DNA of 38,024 nt, taken from IMG/VR virus record IMGVR_UViG_2531839235_000024. One strand, given 5' to 3'. The notes beneath the pieces are model-generated. The model worked only from the letters and a program-made list of their open reading frames with translations, made no database searches and had not been told where the DNA came from. Source of the stretch: a virus. Its lineage: Duplodnaviria; Heunggongvirae; Uroviricota; Caudoviricetes. The stretch's first letter is position 1; the number at the start of each line of letters is the position of its first letter. A program made the translations under genes and the position numbers. Of the stretch, positions 1-28,918 are shown one piece after another.

Positions 1-262
1 ATGAACAGGCTTTTTTCAGGTCGTTCCGATATGCCCTTTGCGCTGTTGCTTCTCGCACCCAGCTTATTACTGCTGGGCGGTCTGGTTGCGTGGCCAATGG
101 TGTCGAATATCGAAATTAGTTTTTTACGTCTGCCGCTCAATCCCAACATCGAGTCAACGTTTGTTGGGGTAAGCAACTATGTGCGTATTCTCTCCGATCC
201 CGGCTTCTGGCACTCGCTGTGGATGACGGTCTGGTATACCGCGTATAGCGCGGCGATTTTTT
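1..262 (+). pseudogene. 5' fragment of a host sugar ABC transporter permease gene (MalF/UgpA-like; possibly ycjO) interrupted by the prophage insertion
   Basis: ORF 1..354 starts with a hydrophobic N-terminal TM segment and the permease-typical FVG..N(Y/F)V...W...W(Y)T motif, then loses permease character near 245-265 where repeated TTTGATAC end motifs begin. The ycjO identity is from memory and unverified. Confidence 0.5.
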
Positions 263-330
263 TGATACCGATTTGCATTTCATTTGATACCGCTGAAAAA
301 CGCCGATACGCAACTTATTTGATACTAAAT
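258..330. repeat. Putative transposase-binding end repeats (three direct TTTGATAC(C/T) motifs at 261-269, 283-291, 318-326)
   Basis: Seen directly in the sequence, between the mom stop (372) and the host gene fragment; one sub-motif (CTGAAAAACGCC, 292-303) resembles the CGAAAAACGCG of the Mu R1 site as I recall it. Confidence 0.4.
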
Positions 331-371
331 CGGCGCTTTTCTTTTGGGTTTTAGAATGAGTTTTTAAGCGT

Positions 372-1109
372 TCACTCACTCTCTTTTAAACCAGTTTTAA
401 CTGTTTGTGGTTTTGGGTAAGGCTGGACTTTGAATAGCTTTGTGTTGAGGCGTTTTCTGGCCCTCTTGTTCAGAAACCGGATGTAACGAAACTGACGGAA
501 TTTATGAACACTGGCTCTGTCGATATTAGCCCTCAGATGTTCACCTCGCTGTCCGCCTCGTTTAATGGCATTCCTGCAAATCTCGTGATACCACTCGCCA
601 TCAAGTTCATAGAATGTTGATTCGTGGCTGCCTACATAATCAAAATTGCTTGCCTGATACACGACACCAAGACAGCCACAACGCTCATCTGCAAACGACT
701 GAACCCACTGTACCTGCGGATAAAGCTGCCTGATTAGCTTGAGCGCGTAACTGATTGCCCTTGATTCGGAGTTTCTCGGCATACAGTCATGCAGCCATAA
801 CCGGTTAAGCTCCATATATTCACGGTTCCGCGTGCCCGTTACGACGCGTGCACCACTGTTTGGATTAAGGGCATAGCCCCATTGCATTACGCCAACCAGC
901 TCCCGTTCTGAAAATATGCCCAGATGAAGGTAGGAGTTATTTACGAAACGGTGGCTGTAATGTTTATTGACGATGACCAGTCTGGCCAGCCAGCAACTTA
1001 TTGTCTCAACCCGCAACTCACGGGAGCCATAACCAACGATATTGTCGTTATAGCGAATAAGTTCAGGCGTGCTGATGATACGGGATGTGACTTGCTTTCT
1101 GTTCCCCAC
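372..1109 (-). CDS. mom: Mom-like DNA modification protein (adenine hypermodification, anti-restriction)
   Basis: 245-aa ORF at the extreme right end of the prophage, immediately downstream of and overlapping a Com-type zinc-finger gene, as in Mu; GTG start inferred from the ORF track. Confidence 0.7.
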
Positions 1110-1263
1110 GACAGGATTTCCTTGTGTATGTGGGGTGCTCTGTGGCGCTCGGAGATGTGATTTGATTGAGGGTTTTACAGCGCGGACATTTTACTTCCAG
1201 ATAACTGAAACTGGCCCGTGCCAGTAGCTTATTGCAGTGTCGGCACCGTATGTTTCGATACAT
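1063..1263 (-). CDS. com: Com translational activator of mom (zinc finger)
   Basis: Internal ATG at 1263 preceded by AGGAGG; product [30 protein letters not shown]...EHPT matches the Mu Com CxxC-N16-CxxC zinc finger pattern as I recall it; 3' end overlaps the mom start. Confidence 0.8.
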
Positions 1264-1304
1264 GGCCGCATAACCTCCTGCTTTGTTGTTGATGCCTTTC
1301 TCAT

Positions 1305-1335
1305 GCAATCGATCGACAAAAACGATCGATTCGAT
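1305..1335. promoter_or_regulatory. GATC (Dam site) cluster upstream of com-mom; candidate methylation-sensitive regulatory region
   Basis: GATC at 1311-1314 and 1324-1327 within CAATCGATCGACAAAAACGATCGATTCGATT, about 50-65 bp upstream of the com ATG; Mu mom is known to be controlled through clustered Dam sites upstream of its promoter. Confidence 0.35.
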
Positions 1336-1663
1336 TTGTTTAATTGATACAACAAATAGATTGAAAAGTCATCAACAATGATTCAGGGCGGTGATTATTT
1401 ACTTAAAGAAAACGAAGACTTAGGTGGTGAAAACGATCATAAAATGATCATTTTATTGACTTTTTATACAGTGAAGGTAGGATCGCGCGTATATGTAGTA
1501 TGTTTCAAATCAACAGGATACTACATAAAGGGAGGTCCAGATAGTTACAGCTATCTGGACCTGGAACAAATTCGCATCAATGCTTTACTTCGAGCTCGTG
1601 TCGTATCCTATGATATTCCCCGGTCTCCTGTAAAGCAGAGATGCATAAAAAGGAGATCTTTAC

Positions 1664-1834
1664 ATGGATAAAGAGCCTGTTTGCCCTGCCTGTAAGACTC
1701 CCTTACAGCTCATCTATCGCCGTTCTCGATCTCAAAATGGCAAGACATACAAACCCCAAAATGCGTCCTGTTTCAGGATGCTGATATGTCCTGCCTGTTC
1801 TCCCCGGAGGGAAAGTACACAAAACGTGCATTAA
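1664..1834 (+). CDS. Small zinc-ribbon protein (56 aa; CPAC...CPAC), not in the supplied ORF track
   Basis: ATG at 1664 preceded by AAAAGGAGA with about 7 nt spacing; translation MDKEPVCPACKTPLQLIYRRSRSQNGKTYKPQNASCFRMLICPACSPRRESTQNVH; followed by a perfect hairpin at 1844-1863. Confidence 0.4.
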   Translation: MDKEPVCPACKTPLQLIYRRSRSQNGKTYKPQNASCFRMLICPACSPRRESTQNVH

Positions 1835-1843
1835 CAAATTCAC

Positions 1844-1863
1844 CCGGCAGGGAAACCTGCCGG
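1844..1863. terminator. Bidirectional stem-loop between convergent genes (CCGGCAGG-GAAA-CCTGCCGG)
   Basis: Perfect 8-bp stem with GAAA tetraloop sitting exactly in the 38-bp gap between the stop of the plus zinc-ribbon ORF (1834) and the stop of the minus 81-aa ORF (1873). Confidence 0.45.
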
Positions 1864-1872
1864 TCGGTATTG

Positions 1873-2118
1873 TTACATCATAGTACCGTCAGTTCCGGGC
1901 TGAACCGGCTCTGGTTGCTCTACGGCTTGAGGCTCATTCTCCGTGCTGTTTTCAGCCGGAGAATGGCCAACCATTCGGGCCAGCACTTCATCAACATATG
2001 CGTCGATTTGTGCCTCAAAATCCTTGCGAACCTGCGCCTTCAGCACGCGGTTCACTTCTTCAGAATAAAGTGCCTGTTTGACAAGCTCTTCAGTAACCGT
2101 GCCTTTAATCTCTGGCAT
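1873..2118 (-). CDS. Hypothetical acidic protein (81 aa)
   Basis: ATG at 2118 preceded by AAAAGGAG with 7 nt spacing; protein-like amphipathic composition; the overlapping plus ORF 1786..2247 looks like antisense junk. Confidence 0.5.
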   Translation of the reverse strand: MPEIKGTVTEELVKQALYSEEVNRVLKAQVRKDFEAQIDAYVDEVLARMVGHSPAENSTENEPQAVEQPEPVQPGTDGTMM

Positions 2119-2153
2119 GAATATTCTCCTTTTGCAGGTATATTGCCCCGTTA

Positions 2154-2336
2154 TCAGAGCGGGGTCGGGTCGTTTGGGGATGACGGTGCCTGTGCTGTTT
2201 TACTGAGTTTTTCAGCTGCCGCATCATCAATTTTACGGCGAATATAATTTCTGATGACCTTATAACCGCCGCTCACCAGATATAACGCACTGACCACTGC
2301 GCAGAAATAAAGCAGCATTGTATGAACGAATGTCAT
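2154..2336 (-). CDS. Hypothetical small membrane protein (60 aa, one N-terminal TM helix)
   Basis: Hydrophobic segment LLYFCAVVSALYLVSGG followed by a charged tail; AAGG-type RBS upstream; immediately upstream of the 81-aa gene on the same strand. Confidence 0.4.
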   Translation of the reverse strand: MTFVHTMLLYFCAVVSALYLVSGGYKVIRNYIRRKIDDAAAEKLSKTAQAPSSPNDPTPL

Positions 2337-2402
2337 ATAACCTTACCTTTGATATTGACTACATAATTCGTTATCGGGTAAAAACATCGAAGCGACTGAT
2401 AA

Positions 2403-2482
2403 CCACTCCTTCGGGAGTATTTTTATTTTCCTTTATGGGTTAGGTAGCTCCCGCCAGCCATATCATGACCGGCGGGATTTTT
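2403..2482 (+). terminator. Two tandem plus-oriented terminator-like hairpins (ACTCC-TTCG-GGAGT + T-run; CCCGCC...GGCGGG + T7)
   Basis: Stem-loops at about 2405-2428 and 2449-2482, each followed by a T-run on the plus strand; they abut or overlap the esterase stop codon (2483-2485). Confidence 0.3.
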
Positions 2483-4531
2483 TTATTCTGTTACCGCTTT
2501 TTTCACTTCCACCACAATGCTGTCAATCAGCACCGGGTAAGTTGCATTTTTTGTGATATCCGTTACGCGGAGTTTGTCCACCGGGAAAGTTCCTACTGGT
2601 GACTGCGTCAGGGTAAACGCGGCACCATCCTGACCATCAATAACCGGAATAACCTGAAGGCTGTTATTTCCTGCAAAACGGAAGGCCAGCGTATGCCATT
2701 CATTATCAAATGCACCAAAGGTTCCCAGTTTCTGGTTATTTGTTGCCACTTTTGCATTGTGGTACATCACATTCAGGTCTTTTGCGTCTGTCTGGATGTA
2801 GAACGATGCCAGCAGATTATTCCCTGCATCCCCTGTCAGGGTGACACCCTGCGGCAGAGAGGAAACCGGCCAGTAAAGCGCCATGACATACTGGTTTGCC
2901 ACCAGGTCGCCCGGTACTTTAAAACGACAACTGATTAAACCACCATTTTTCAGCAGTTCAGCACCAGTACCGGCATCATGATCCAGATACCAGGATGATT
3001 TACCTGTTTCCTTGGTCAGTTTCATTGCCTTACCACCTGTGCCTCCTGCATCACTGATAATTTCAGCTTTACCGCCAGCCGGCTCCCAGCCCTGGGCTTT
3101 CAGATTTCCTTCTGACTCACTGACACGGTAAGACAGCAGTGTTGTGGTTACTGCTTCAGTTTCTGAAGGTGACGGCACTGGTGCTTCAGTTTCAGAAGAT
3201 GGAACATCGGCTTTTACTGTGGTTCGCCCCGCATGAGTCAGAACTGCCGTGGCCAGACGGTCGGAAATAATCCCACGACGTGCCCATGAACTGAAATGGC
3301 TGGCCCGGTCCGTAGATGTCCAGGTGGCGGCACTGTTACGCCACGTTGAGCCGTAATAACCAATGGATTCAATATCCGGGTCTTCTGCCGGATTGTTGGT
3401 GGGTACATTCGCGCCATTTTCATCTGTCATTAATGGGACGAAATGAATGTTTTTATCTGTTTTATTTTTGTAGCCGTCATAGATTGCCTGGTATGCCTGT
3501 TCGTTTTTCTGTTTCCAGAAATACGTGGTATCACCACAAATCCACGGAACGCCAGCAGCACTGCCACCGGTACACTGTTCCGCCTGTTCAGCCAGGTCTG
3601 CGCGGAATTTTTCCACCATCGCCAGAAACAGCGCAGAATGCTCCGTCGGCTTCGCATCAATATCAAACTCGCCCTGCATCCACACCACAGCAAGCAGGCG
3701 GTTTTTCGGGTTCTTCGCCAGTGCCGCTTTTGTCCGGCTGATTAAGTCCTTATACAGCGGCTTATCCACACCCCAGCGGGCTGAGTCCTCTGAAGCACCC
3801 GTGCTGTCACTGTACGTGCCGTCAGCACCCGCCGTGAATGCAGAACCACCACGGCAGCAGGGAACCAGCAGAATCCCCGCATCTGCCGGAATAAACGGCA
3901 GCAGTTTTTTGGCAATGTGAAGCCCCTGACCCACGGTGCCATATTGCCCTTTAGCCACATCCGCTTTCGGGTGATTTTTTCCACTCATATCCTGCACATC
4001 ATGCAGACAGTGGTCGGCCAGAATGATGTCGTTATACTGACAGGCTTTACCTCCCGGCGTGACTGTACTGCGACGGGCTAACTGCATAATACGCGGTTCG
4101 GGGCGGTCATATGTCTCCGGCAGTGGCAGACCTTCACCGTAAGCCATACCGTTTGACTGACCAGCAAGAACCACCACGTAATACCAGGAAGGGGAGCTGG
4201 AAGCCGTTTCATTTCCTGCCGGACGGGTATGTGTTTCTGCATTATCCCAGTCTGACGGTTCAGTAGTACCGGCAACATCAGCACTTAACGGAATGACAGC
4301 ACCAATACCCGCTCCGGTAATTTCCACGTTCGGATCACCGGATACTGGCCTTACCCACAGGCAATCCTGTGTATTAAAACTGATGAGACAGTCAGCAAAT
4401 GTCATTCCTCCTTTCGTTTCAGCAGGAGGAAAGGGAGCCTCAAGAAATGCCGCTGTACCACCGGAAACTTTAACGGTAAAGTTTCCGGGCATTGATGATA
4501 GTTGAACCCATTTGGACGTCATAATATTCAT
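2483..4531 (-). CDS. Carbohydrate esterase, SASA/SGNH-hydrolase type (sialate O-acetylesterase-like, NanS-p-like) with a C-terminal lectin-like domain
   Basis: 682-aa ORF containing the esterase blocks VVLAGQSNGMAYGEG and VVWMQGEFD, a Ser/Thr/Pro/Glu-rich linker (SSETEAPVPSPSETEA) and a roughly 240-aa C-terminal domain; AGGA RBS before ATG at 4531. It has no counterpart at this position in Mu. Confidence 0.6.
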   Translation of the reverse strand: MNIMTSKWVQLSSMPGNFTVKVSGGTAAFLEAPFPPAETKGGMTFADCLISFNTQDCLWVRPVSGDPNVEITGAGIGAVIPLSADVAGTTEPSDWDNAETHTRPAGNETASSSPSWYYVVVLAGQSNGMAYGEGLPLPETYDRPEPRIMQLARRSTVTPGGKACQYNDIILADHCLHDVQDMSGKNHPKADVAKGQYGTVGQGLHIAKKLLPFIPADAGILLVPCCRGGSAFTAGADGTYSDSTGASEDSARWGVDKPLYKDLISRTKAALAKNPKNRLLAVVWMQGEFDIDAKPTEHSALFLAMVEKFRADLAEQAEQCTGGSAAGVPWICGDTTYFWKQKNEQAYQAIYDGYKNKTDKNIHFVPLMTDENGANVPTNNPAEDPDIESIGYYGSTWRNSAATWTSTDRASHFSSWARRGIISDRLATAVLTHAGRTTVKADVPSSETEAPVPSPSETEAVTTTLLSYRVSESEGNLKAQGWEPAGGKAEIISDAGGTGGKAMKLTKETGKSSWYLDHDAGTGAELLKNGGLISCRFKVPGDLVANQYVMALYWPVSSLPQGVTLTGDAGNNLLASFYIQTDAKDLNVMYHNAKVATNNQKLGTFGAFDNEWHTLAFRFAGNNSLQVIPVIDGQDGAAFTLTQSPVGTFPVDKLRVTDITKNATYPVLIDSIVVEVKKAVTE

Positions 4532-4621
4532 CCTGTTCCTGAATAAACAGAATTATCATATCCACAGACCGATAAACGCCATTTTGCGTTAATTCAGTAA
4601 AGGCCCAACAAAGGGAGCGTC

Positions 4622-5182
4622 TTATTTTTCCGAAACGCTCGCAGGATAATAACGATAAAGGGTTGAAAGGCCGATATCAAAAATAAGTGCCACCTGTCTT
4701 CGACTGACACCCCCGGCCAGTAAACGCCCGACCTGCTCGTATTGTTCCTGCGTGAGACGACGGGGTCTGCCGCCGGTTCGTCCCCTTTCACGGGCAGCTG
4801 CAAGACCAGCCCGTGTCCGTTCGACAATTAATTCACGCTCCATTTCTGCCAGCGCACCCATTATGTGAAAAAAGAAGCGCCCCATGGGGGTTGACGTATC
4901 AATGTTGTCAGTAAGACTACGAAAATTTATCCCCTGTTGCTGTAATTCATCTGTCAGCGCAACAAGGTGGCGCATACTGCGCCCCAGCCTGTCCAGTTTC
5001 CAGACCATCAGTGTGTCACCGGGTTTTAGTTTCTTCAGTGCCCGCTTCAGTCCCGGCCGCTGTGTCGTTTTACCACTCATTTTGTCTTCAAAAATCTGCT
5101 CACATCCTGCACATTCCAGCGCATTTCTTTGTAAACCGGTGTTCTGGTCATTTGTTGATACGCGTATATAGCCAATCAGCAT
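4622..5182 (-). CDS. gin: Gin/Hin/Pin-family serine DNA invertase
   Basis: 186 aa; N-terminal MLIGYIRVSTNDQNTGLQRNALECAGCEQIFEDK...TLMVWKLDRLGRS and C-terminal HTH GGRPRRLT match Mu Gin and serine invertases nearly residue for residue. Confidence 0.92.
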   Translation of the reverse strand: MLIGYIRVSTNDQNTGLQRNALECAGCEQIFEDKMSGKTTQRPGLKRALKKLKPGDTLMVWKLDRLGRSMRHLVALTDELQQQGINFRSLTDNIDTSTPMGRFFFHIMGALAEMERELIVERTRAGLAAARERGRTGGRPRRLTQEQYEQVGRLLAGGVSRRQVALIFDIGLSTLYRYYPASVSEK

Positions 5183-20518: not shown

Positions 20519-20694
20519 TCCGGCAGCATAAGCCGGGAATTTTCAGGACGGGTTTTGCGGGATTTCAGGAAGTGCTTTCAGGGGAAAAATACAAAGGCGC
20601 TTCACGCAGATTTTAAAGCCCGTTAAATACAGGTTAGAAAATCACGACACGCGCCTGAAGGGGGTAAGGTAATGCATTTGCATACCTTAAACAA

Positions 20695-28460: not shown

Positions 28461-28492
28461 GGTGAAGGAGAGGCGGCAGGCTTTGCGGAATA

Positions 28493-28918
28493 TCAGAAAA
28501 GTGGCGGTTGCGTTCTTGCCAGATGCAGACGGCGCTGTTCGCGTATGACGGTATAAATCTGGGTTTCTGACATCCGGTAATGGCGGCGAAGGGATTCAAT
28601 TTTCTCGCCCCGGTCCCAGCGCGAAAATATCTCATTGTTTCGCAGCTCGGCAAAGAGAGATTCCCCGACCGGCAGGTAATAACCCCGTCCGCCCATATAG
28701 GCTGCCTGAGCCGCAGCCACCTTGCGTGCCAGTTTACCGGCCAGTACCGGCTCAATCCCCTGACGCTGAAGTTCTGCGCCGGTGACTTCAACCAGTTCTG
28801 ACAGGGTCCGCGGCCAGTTCTTTTTGAGAACATCATCAGGGATGTCATCAAGGCGGTCGATAAGGGCGTGCAGTTGCTCACTGTCACCACCAAACATGCT
28901 CATCTGAGTTTCTGCCAT
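28493..28918 (-). CDS. Mor/C-family transcriptional activator (probable late-gene activator C analogue)
   Basis: 141 aa with the C-terminal HTH pattern LRRHYRMSETQIYTVIREQRR resembling Mu Mor/C; immediately upstream of the lysis genes. Confidence 0.65.
   Translation of the reverse strand: MAETQMSMFGGDSEQLHALIDRLDDIPDDVLKKNWPRTLSELVEVTGAELQRQGIEPVLAGKLARKVAAAQAAYMGGRGYYLPVGESLFAELRNNEIFSRWDRGEKIESLRRHYRMSETQIYTVIREQRRLHLARTQPPLF

Follow-up and report, generated by a model that had tools for sequence, protein, structure and literature searches.

In bacteriophage Mu, the com and mom genes (Mup54/Mup55) constitute a module for DNA hypermodification. Mu Mom transfers glycine from Gly-tRNA(Gly) to N6 of adenine in double-stranded DNA, where the adduct rearranges on the base to give N6-carbamoylmethyl-adenine (6-NcmdA) (PMC13219725), and expression of Mom has a toxic effect (PMC3378877). 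The GATC sites of Mu mediate Dam/OxyR control of the mom promoter (Pmom) (PMC3378877; PMC2909390), and the site of the activator C at Pmom differs from the C sites at other late promoters (PMC4461284). Com homologues are also found upstream of right-end DNA-modification genes, which they probably gate, in FluMu (Hin1523), Pnme1 (Nme1821), Hia5, and B3 (ORF47/48), and in Sp18, a Mu-like prophage of O157, genes for Mom and its regulators occupy the equivalent positions (PMC3299994). A survey of viromes yielded more than 8,000 Mom homologues (PMC13219725). Here, we analyzed the com-mom locus of a viral sequence of 38,024 nucleotides (nt) (IMG/VR record IMGVR_UViG_2531839235_000024; Caudoviricetes), the whole of which is hereafter called the window, with positions counted from its first letter. 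At a probability of roughly 0.88, we consider the region to be the com-mom operon of a Mu-like transposable prophage, which belongs to a family common in Shiga-toxin-producing E. coli (STEC) and is inserted in ycjO.

The mom and com genes

The mom gene (372..1109, minus strand) encodes a GNAT-fold protein of the Mom family with 245 amino acids (aa) and a GUG start. From the reading of the open reading frame (ORF), this GTG (1109) is the earliest possible start downstream of the in-frame stop, and the GUG of Mu mom matches the Δ10 N-terminus, which is fully active (PMC13219725). The product matched the Pfam Mom profile (PF25680) over its entire length (1-202/202; E = 4.5e-77; 258.7 bits against a cut-off of 27.1) and phrog_1384 in PHROGs (E = 9.5e-84). 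The alignment with Mu Mom was gap-free over 229 aa (80% identity), and the sequence of the Mu Mom crystal structure (PDB 8bv8) matched with an E-value of 1.3e-124; the helix-turn-helix (HTH)-like insertion (Mu residues ~175-209), which is specific to Mom and needed for the activity of Mu Mom (PMC13219725), was gap-free in the alignments to both. In the mutagenesis of Mu Mom, R111, S124, and R151 were essential, and H58, Y59, W48 (a dimer residue), Y159, W181, and D149 were important (PMC13219725). All of them, together with Y28, were conserved in the window protein (10/10; window offset, -8).

At the DNA level, the third codon positions were only 43% identical to those of Mu, as against 80% identity of the proteins. 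The mom reading frame was intact in each of the 14 distinct alleles of the prophage family, and the ratio of nonsynonymous to synonymous substitution rates (dN/dS) between the window allele and the 13 other distinct alleles was 0.03-0.07; mom is under strong purifying selection. From the close homology to Mu Mom, we infer that the window Mom is a Gly-tRNA(Gly)-dependent enzyme for adenine N6 hypermodification. It would modify adenines to 6-NcmdA and would protect progeny phage DNA from many restriction enzymes.

The com gene (1063..1263, minus strand; ATG at 1263) encodes a Com-type zinc-ribbon protein of 66 aa with the pattern CxxC-N15-CxxC (Cys7, Cys10, Cys26, and Cys29). The product matched Pfam Zn_ribbon_Com (PF10122; E = 3.3e-12; 46.1 bits against a cut-off of 22.9) and phrog_13819, 'gpCom control of modification' (E = 5e-13), and it aligned with Mu Com over 58 aa with 47% identity. 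The four cysteines were aligned, that is, with the zinc-binding C6, C9, C26, and C29 of Mu Com, as these are given in PMC3299994, citing Witkowski 1995. A search of PDB with Com returned just a weak, non-significant zinc-ribbon likeness to eS27. A Shine-Dalgarno (SD) sequence, AGGAGG (1274..1279, minus strand), was read in the sequence and is kept in all alleles, and the com ATG lies 10 nt beyond it. By homology, Com would be an RNA-binding translational activator of mom.

An earlier note on this DNA, made from its letters and ORFs, had read here a Com-type zinc-finger ORF overlapping the start of a 245-aa Mom-like ORF as an intact copy of the module, and had named alignment to Mu Mom and Com and RNA folding of the junction as checks. 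The two ORFs are as it described, on the minus strand and with an overlap of 47 nt. The family identity of both products was borne out by Pfam, whose cut-offs both passed, and PHROGs agreed; the alignments to Mu gave the 80% and 47% identity mentioned above, and the copy is intact.

RNA hairpins at the com-mom junction

At its 3' end, com overlaps the beginning of mom in a different frame (1063..1109, minus strand, from the ORF coordinates); the 47-nt overlap of the window compares with 50 nt in Mu and a range of 17-56 nt across the other com lineages. The two genes would be carried on one mRNA, com first and then mom. The minimum free energy (MFE) fold and the centroid fold both contained a putative translation-inhibition hairpin (1104..1135, minus strand), in which CCCCAC (1135-1130) pairs with GUGGGG (1109-1104). 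The mom GUG (1109-1107) is within the 3' arm of this hairpin, and the loop contains an SD-like AAGGA (1123-1119). Mu was predicted to fold alike, with UCCCAC...GUGGGA around its mom GUG. Thus, the folding of the junction that the earlier note had proposed did predict a hairpin occluding the start, and this hairpin is conserved in relatives.

The relatives were 80 loci from IMG/VR, most of them with a com ORF overlapping mom, and covariation was evaluated with the 13 distinct junction sequences that could be aligned. The CCCAC/GUGGG core was invariant in all 13; because both reading frames constrain the core, this invariance is uninformative either way. The sixth pair of the inhibition hairpin covaries (U-A in 7 junctions, C-G in 6, and unpaired in none). 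Covariation also indicated a second hairpin directly 5' of the first, GCGC-CACAGA-GCAC (1135..1148, minus strand), the Mu counterpart of which is AUGC-CUGCGA-GCAU. For each of its four pairs, some lineage has both bases changed, and 94% of the cells (sequence by pair) were paired. For both hairpins together, 97% of the cells were paired, and with the partners slid the value was 23-60%. By its position, the 1135-1148 hairpin is the putative Com operator. A modest comparative value of the locus is that, among its relatives, covariation backs both hairpins of the Com switch. The folding z-scores of the hairpins ranged from -1.3 to +0.9 over all runs and were not significant; because of this, we rest the support for the hairpins on conservation and covariation. 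A scan of positions 1-5000 with Rfam gave no meaningful matches.

C1135 can pair either with G1148, in the putative operator, or with G1104, in the start-occluding hairpin, and both alternatives covary in the relatives (G-C/G-U/A-U for the former and U-A/C-G for the latter). A competition between two mutually exclusive structures fits this sharing of C1135, as a speculation. In the proposed mechanism, the mom GUG would be locked in the 3' arm of CCCCAC/GUGGGG, and Com would bind the small hairpin directly 5' and open the start-occluding structure, so that Mom would be made only once Com had accumulated.

The region upstream of com

A perfect 25-bp palindrome, AATCGATCG-N7-CGATCGATT, is located at 1307..1331 and contains two Dam sites, GATC at 1311-1314 and at 1324-1327 (51 and 64 nt upstream of the com ATG); GATT, with one mismatch, is at 1328-1331 and 1333-1336, and all of these are within 1311-1340. 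The two GATCs and a near-GATC within a 30-bp stretch upstream of com were correctly seen in the earlier note, which listed one of the two GATT forms. The palindrome aligns with AATCGATC-N9-GATCGATT of Mu, which holds GATC2 and GATC3, and it is invariant in nine alleles of the prophage family. A close GATC pair (13-19 bp apart) was present upstream of com in 12 of 16 com lineages, with different flanks. By counts, nothing stood out: GATC pairs at most 14 bp apart numbered 5 in the window (5.3 expected), a 180-bp stretch with at least five GATCs was obtained in 23% of random placements, GATC was, if anything, under-represented across the window (121 observed; 149 ± 12 expected), and the GATC-free stretch across com-mom was not, or only marginally, beyond chance. 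Because pair spacing and density are within chance, GATC counts were not used as evidence; judged from the alignments, it is through homology and conservation that the cluster is above chance. Accordingly, of the Dam control suggested by the earlier note, the homology to part of the Mu Dam/OxyR element stands, and the clustering as such does not. The palindrome is a putative OxyR/Dam control element, to which OxyR would bind.

A core promoter is predicted at 1289..1319 (minus strand), with a -35-like TTGTCG (1319-1314), a 19-nt spacer as in Mu, a -10-like CATCAA (1294-1289), and transcription beginning at about 1282. Between the palindrome and the YATCAW block, the nine alleles have 16 nt that are hypervariable but constant in number, and the leader and the SD sequence follow the block. 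Three of the nine alleles carry TATCAT or TATCAA at YATCAW, where the window has CATCAA, and the block lies 25 nt from the com ATG, as against 28 nt for the mapped -10 of Mu, TAAGAT. An invariant palindrome followed by 16 variable nt of constant length and then YATCAW fits a promoter spacer. When the Mu start (+1) is placed according to the -58 to +20 fragment of PMC3378877 and PMC4461284, the Mu GATCs fall at -87, -68, and -54, with the C-activator site between the GATCs and the -35. The predicted start of the window places its GATCs at about -45 and -32, over the -35 region; the GATC placement of Mu is not reproduced, the element being ~25 bp nearer to com than in Mu. In the proposed mechanism, transcription would start ~20 nt upstream of com from the weak promoter TTGTCG/19-nt spacer/CATCAA, and OxyR would bind the palindrome when the Dam sites are not fully methylated and would directly block the promoter.

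As for the relatives L031-L033, L035, and L037, the distance between the GATC pair and com varies widely (-15 to -120). In L031-L033, a strong -10 (TATACT or TATAGT) is located just 7-10 nt after the pair. Across lineages, the GATC pair is the conserved core of mom regulation, with the promoter distance and the presence of a C site varying around it.

The window has one gene of the Mor/C family (28493-28918, minus strand), and Mu has two (Mor and C). Its product is 36% identical to Mu C and matched phrog_532, 'late transcriptional activator' (E = 3e-45). The single gene suggests a shorter regulatory cascade than that of Mu. In a search of minus-strand intergenic regions, a motif common to the lysozyme and protease promoters surfaced: CTGAWATYCCGCAAA followed by TAYGCT 23 nt later, which is a candidate late-promoter signature with exact copies upstream of the lysozyme gene, at 28482-28496, and of the protease gene, at 20554-20568 (both minus strand). 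With up to three mismatches, it occurs 13 times in the window (3.7 ± 1.9 expected), including a three-mismatch copy at 4583-4597 (minus strand) before the gene for a DUF6645 protein. In the alignment to Mu, the segment with the Mu C site (ATTATGCCCCAATAACCACACTC) had no counterpart upstream of the window com; the Mu C site was not found there, nor was ATAAYC at Mu-like spacing before a credible -10 in the intergenic region. The comparison of the com upstream region with five other minus-strand intergenic regions gave no motif above the shuffled controls, and a BLAST search of phages with the 61-bp regulatory segment returned only the same prophage and chance matches. A candidate for a Mu-type C site, ATAATC at 1398-1393, was rejected as the activator site of this phage for three reasons: it is inside the coding start of the divergent gene, ATAAYC is absent at the phage's own late promoters, and the CCTG part of the candidate is unconserved in close alleles. 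A binding motif for the C-like activator was not found upstream of com.

Several points weigh against the reading of the locus as a Mu-like com-mom operon with its Com switch and Dam/OxyR element. The window Com is only 47% identical to Mu Com. In the window lineage, the putative operator has a C·A mismatch at its second pair, where the close allele L025 shows U-A, the operator hairpin is not in the MFE fold of the window, and the folding energy of the hairpin is no better than that of shuffled sequence (z = -1.27). In the upstream region, a generic sigma-70 scan found no minus-strand promoter in 1264-1532, and the proposed -10, CATCAA, is poor. The motif of the lysozyme and protease promoters, which rests on only two promoters, is absent from 1264-1532. 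As for OxyR, the half-site consensus (PMC2909390) was matched at only 7 of 10 positions of the window element by our own count, and a good second half-site was not found.

An alternative is a rewiring of the regulation, in which the C-activator site was lost and control would come mainly from Dam/OxyR acting directly on the -35, as at the gtr and agn43 promoters, which are phase-variable; the late lytic phase would then not strictly limit expression, and the enzyme and the Com switch would be unchanged. The GATC element is 51 nt from the com ATG, as against 76 nt in Mu, no counterpart of the C-site segment is present, neither the CTGAWATYCCGCAAA/TAYGCT signature (in 1264-1532) nor ATAAYC at Mu-like spacing is found, the GATC positions (-45/-32) resemble those of P22 gtr (-46/-33) with the same GATCG-N7-CGATC form, and L031-L033 have a good -10 only 7-10 nt past the pair. 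However, the promoter position used in this comparison is itself a prediction, and the C-like motif was derived from two promoters, while the Mu Pmom C site is also unlike those of other late promoters (PMC4461284). Moreover, a weak -10 with a 19-nt spacer is the signature of an activator-dependent promoter, and loose control of a toxic protein (PMC3378877) would be costly, yet mom is under strong purifying selection. We therefore regard rewiring as possible but unlikely. If C control is truly absent from the STEC family, a widespread group of pathogens could produce Mom at times other than the late lytic phase. A further step, an epigenetic switching of com-mom by Dam/OxyR between heritable ON and OFF states instead of strict late-activator control, seems improbable to us; if true, Mom expression and hypermodification of host DNA would be possible in a subpopulation of lysogens.

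It is also conceivable that com has no promoter of its own at the palindrome and is transcribed by read-through from the DUF6645, DUF1378, and DUF826 genes or from a promoter within the start of the divergent gene (about 1398-1360); the palindrome, then located in the 5' leader, would serve as an RNA hairpin or a roadblock site. The upstream genes between 5182 and 1873 are all oriented like com, and a three-mismatch copy of the late-promoter motif is at 4583-4597. The agn43 OxyR/GATC site is located downstream of the transcription start. That site works as a repressor site (PMC2909390), and ATAATC (1398-1393) with GACTTT 22 nt later shows the Mu-like spacing known from Mu oligonucleotides (PMC4461284). 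On the other hand, a perfect 12-bp hairpin with a T-containing tract (1562-1533, minus strand), which scored as terminator-like, stands between the upstream genes and com, and the opposite strand of the 610-bp gap holds a real gene (phrog_26524; E = 6e-65). ATAAYC is missing from the other late promoters and is thus probably not an activator site of this phage, the CCTG part of the candidate site varies in close alleles, and a spacer so variable in sequence yet fixed in length fits a promoter located downstream of the palindrome; we give this alternative little credence. Very improbable, in our estimate, is a silent relic in a defective prophage, with ORFs intact by chance and Mom not made or inactive. 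The frameshift in the neighboring gene (1378-1835), the -10 of the window (CATCAA, the poorest in the family, vs TATCAT or TATCAA), and the mismatch in the putative Com operator would agree with it, but all 14 mom alleles are intact with a dN/dS of 0.03-0.07, every functionally tested residue is conserved, the many insertion sites and up to 4 copies per genome indicate recent transposition, and the gene set from mom to the transposase is contiguous.

Prophage setting and known systems

Of 5,426 complete E. coli genomes, 226-233 contained the 1.1-kb com-mom segment at 95% identity or more (at most 4 copies per genome), and many of the carriers are O157:H7 or other STEC. RefSeq, which annotates mom at the same coordinates, calls its product 'Mom family adenine methylcarbamoylation protein' or 'protein mom'; the name given to the com product is 'Com family DNA-binding transcriptional regulator', which conflicts with the role of Com as a translational activator (PMC3378877). 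The earlier note had called the copy uncommon, notable, and divergent; this is refuted by the number of genomes, the RefSeq names, the survey of Mom homologues (PMC13219725), and Sp18 (PMC3299994). The com-mom module is an already known, textbook system that is widely annotated, and it is ordinary apart from the rearranged promoter region. The only aspect that appears to depart from the textbook, as far as the sequence goes, is a compacted gtr-like regulatory region apparently without a C site.

Bases 1-243 of the window are the start of E. coli ycjO, which was present in 4,992 of the 5,426 complete genomes. The right end of the prophage (attR side) is at 244..371, with ycjO interrupted at 243/244: independent insertions of the same element begin matching at window positions 242-244, and LC727881 marks the equivalent base as the point where an inserted 'Bacteriophage Mu-like phage' ends. 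Three copies of GCNNTTTNTTTGATAC are located at the right end (253-268, 275-290, and 310-325) and probably serve to bind the transposase; an inverted repeat of 13 nt (295-307/329-341) is located there as well. The element apparently begins with TATAGCG... at 244, not with the TG typical of Mu ends, and a terminator-like hairpin (239-253) spans the junction between the host and the prophage.

The gene list of the prophage was taken from the annotation of a near-identical copy in NZ_CP034806 (L004). In that copy, the order is mom, com, small genes, a gin-like invertase, Mu-type tail and head genes, lysis genes, and a Mor/C-family activator, then Gam, an AAA ATPase, and a Mu-type transposase, and the gene set is unbroken between mom and the transposase. 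The transposase is of the MuA type and the ATPase of the MuB type. The last base of the window falls within the transposase gene, with the left end of the prophage beyond it. No transcription unit lies between com-mom and the right end, as is also the case in Mu. The copy in NZ_CP034806 is 100% identical over window positions 243-2500, with an offset of 1 nt after ~1835 and a net offset of 54 nt by ~28.4 kb; by these offsets, the prophage copies are not the same throughout.

Between the gin-like invertase (4622-5182, minus strand) and com, there are ~3.3 kb of extra genes (1378-4531). On the minus strand, these encode a DUF6645/phrog_143 protein of 682 aa (2483-4531), a DUF1378 protein (2154-2336), and a DUF826 protein (1873-2118). 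The gene divergent from com (1378-1835, plus strand) matched phrog_26524 (E = 6e-65) over positions 1-95 of the 135-position profile, where the match breaks off, and RefSeq treats this span as a frameshifted pseudogene. In another frame of the same span, an ORF of 56 aa with CxxC...CxxC and a good SD sequence (1664-1834) may be the shifted 3' part of the phrog_26524 gene. Inside the frameshifted gene, further GATCs (1435 and 1446) are in an 18-nt imperfect palindrome, which is adjoined by a plus-strand sigma-70-like promoter (TTGACT-16-TAGGAT, 1456-1483) with a -10 overlapping the GATC at 1481; perfect inverted repeats of 10 bp (1492-1501/1518-1527) and 12 bp (1533-1544/1551-1562) are also present in this gene. 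A remnant of the gin 3' end (ATCAATTAA) was observed at 1346-1338 (minus strand).

Compared with Mu com-mom, the locus is alike in gene order, in its position at the right end of a transposable phage, in the mom GUG within the 3' arm of CCCAC/GUGGG with a 4-bp hairpin directly 5', in the palindromic GATC pair upstream, and in the Mor/C-family activator gene right before the lysis genes. It differs in having two GATCs where Mu has three (the position of Mu GATC1 is AATC in the window), in a palindrome 51-64 nt from the com ATG (78-109 nt in Mu), and in the lack of both the C-binding segment and the T6 run of Mu. The loop of the inhibition hairpin is 20 nt, as against 11 nt in Mu, and the window Mom has a C-terminal extension of 12 aa relative to Mu Mom. 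The gin-like invertase is ~3.3 kb from com, whereas Mu gin ends inside the mom regulatory region. The Mu arrangement claimed in the earlier note therefore holds for the genes, the overlap, and the hairpin; it does not hold for the upstream region, with its two GATCs rather than three, located ~25 bp nearer to com, and no counterpart of the C-site DNA.

As for the Mu-like prophages of STEC, Sp18 of O157:H7 Sakai is the published example, likened here through the statement of the publication, and the insert in LC727881 was 94.8% identical over the aligned parts (47% of the query). Mu_JNE082796 is an STEC Mu-like prophage inserted in a Stx2c phage. The insertion sites differ among these prophages, ycjO in the window and other genes elsewhere, and the promoter-spacer allele of the window, with CATCAA, is one of several in the family. 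The P22 gtr region, which was read directly, has GATC3/4 in the same GATCG-N7-CGATC form and with the same 13-bp spacing as the window pair; the positions, -46/-33 in P22 gtr, compare with -45/-32 in the window, where the position of the promoter is a prediction. In P22 gtr, the OxyR(C) half-site contains GATC3/4, the promoter is overlapped by the OxyR(BC) site, and OxyR is kept from binding by methylation (PMC2909390). P22 gtr has two GATC pairs and a central consensus half-site, whereas the window has one pair, and neither P22 gtr nor agn43 has sequence similarity to the window beyond the short element. Finally, the com-linked modules of FluMu, Pnme1, Hia5, and B3 carry an S-adenosylmethionine (AdoMet)-dependent N6-methyladenine (m6A) methyltransferase, whereas the window carries a true Mom-family enzyme downstream of com.

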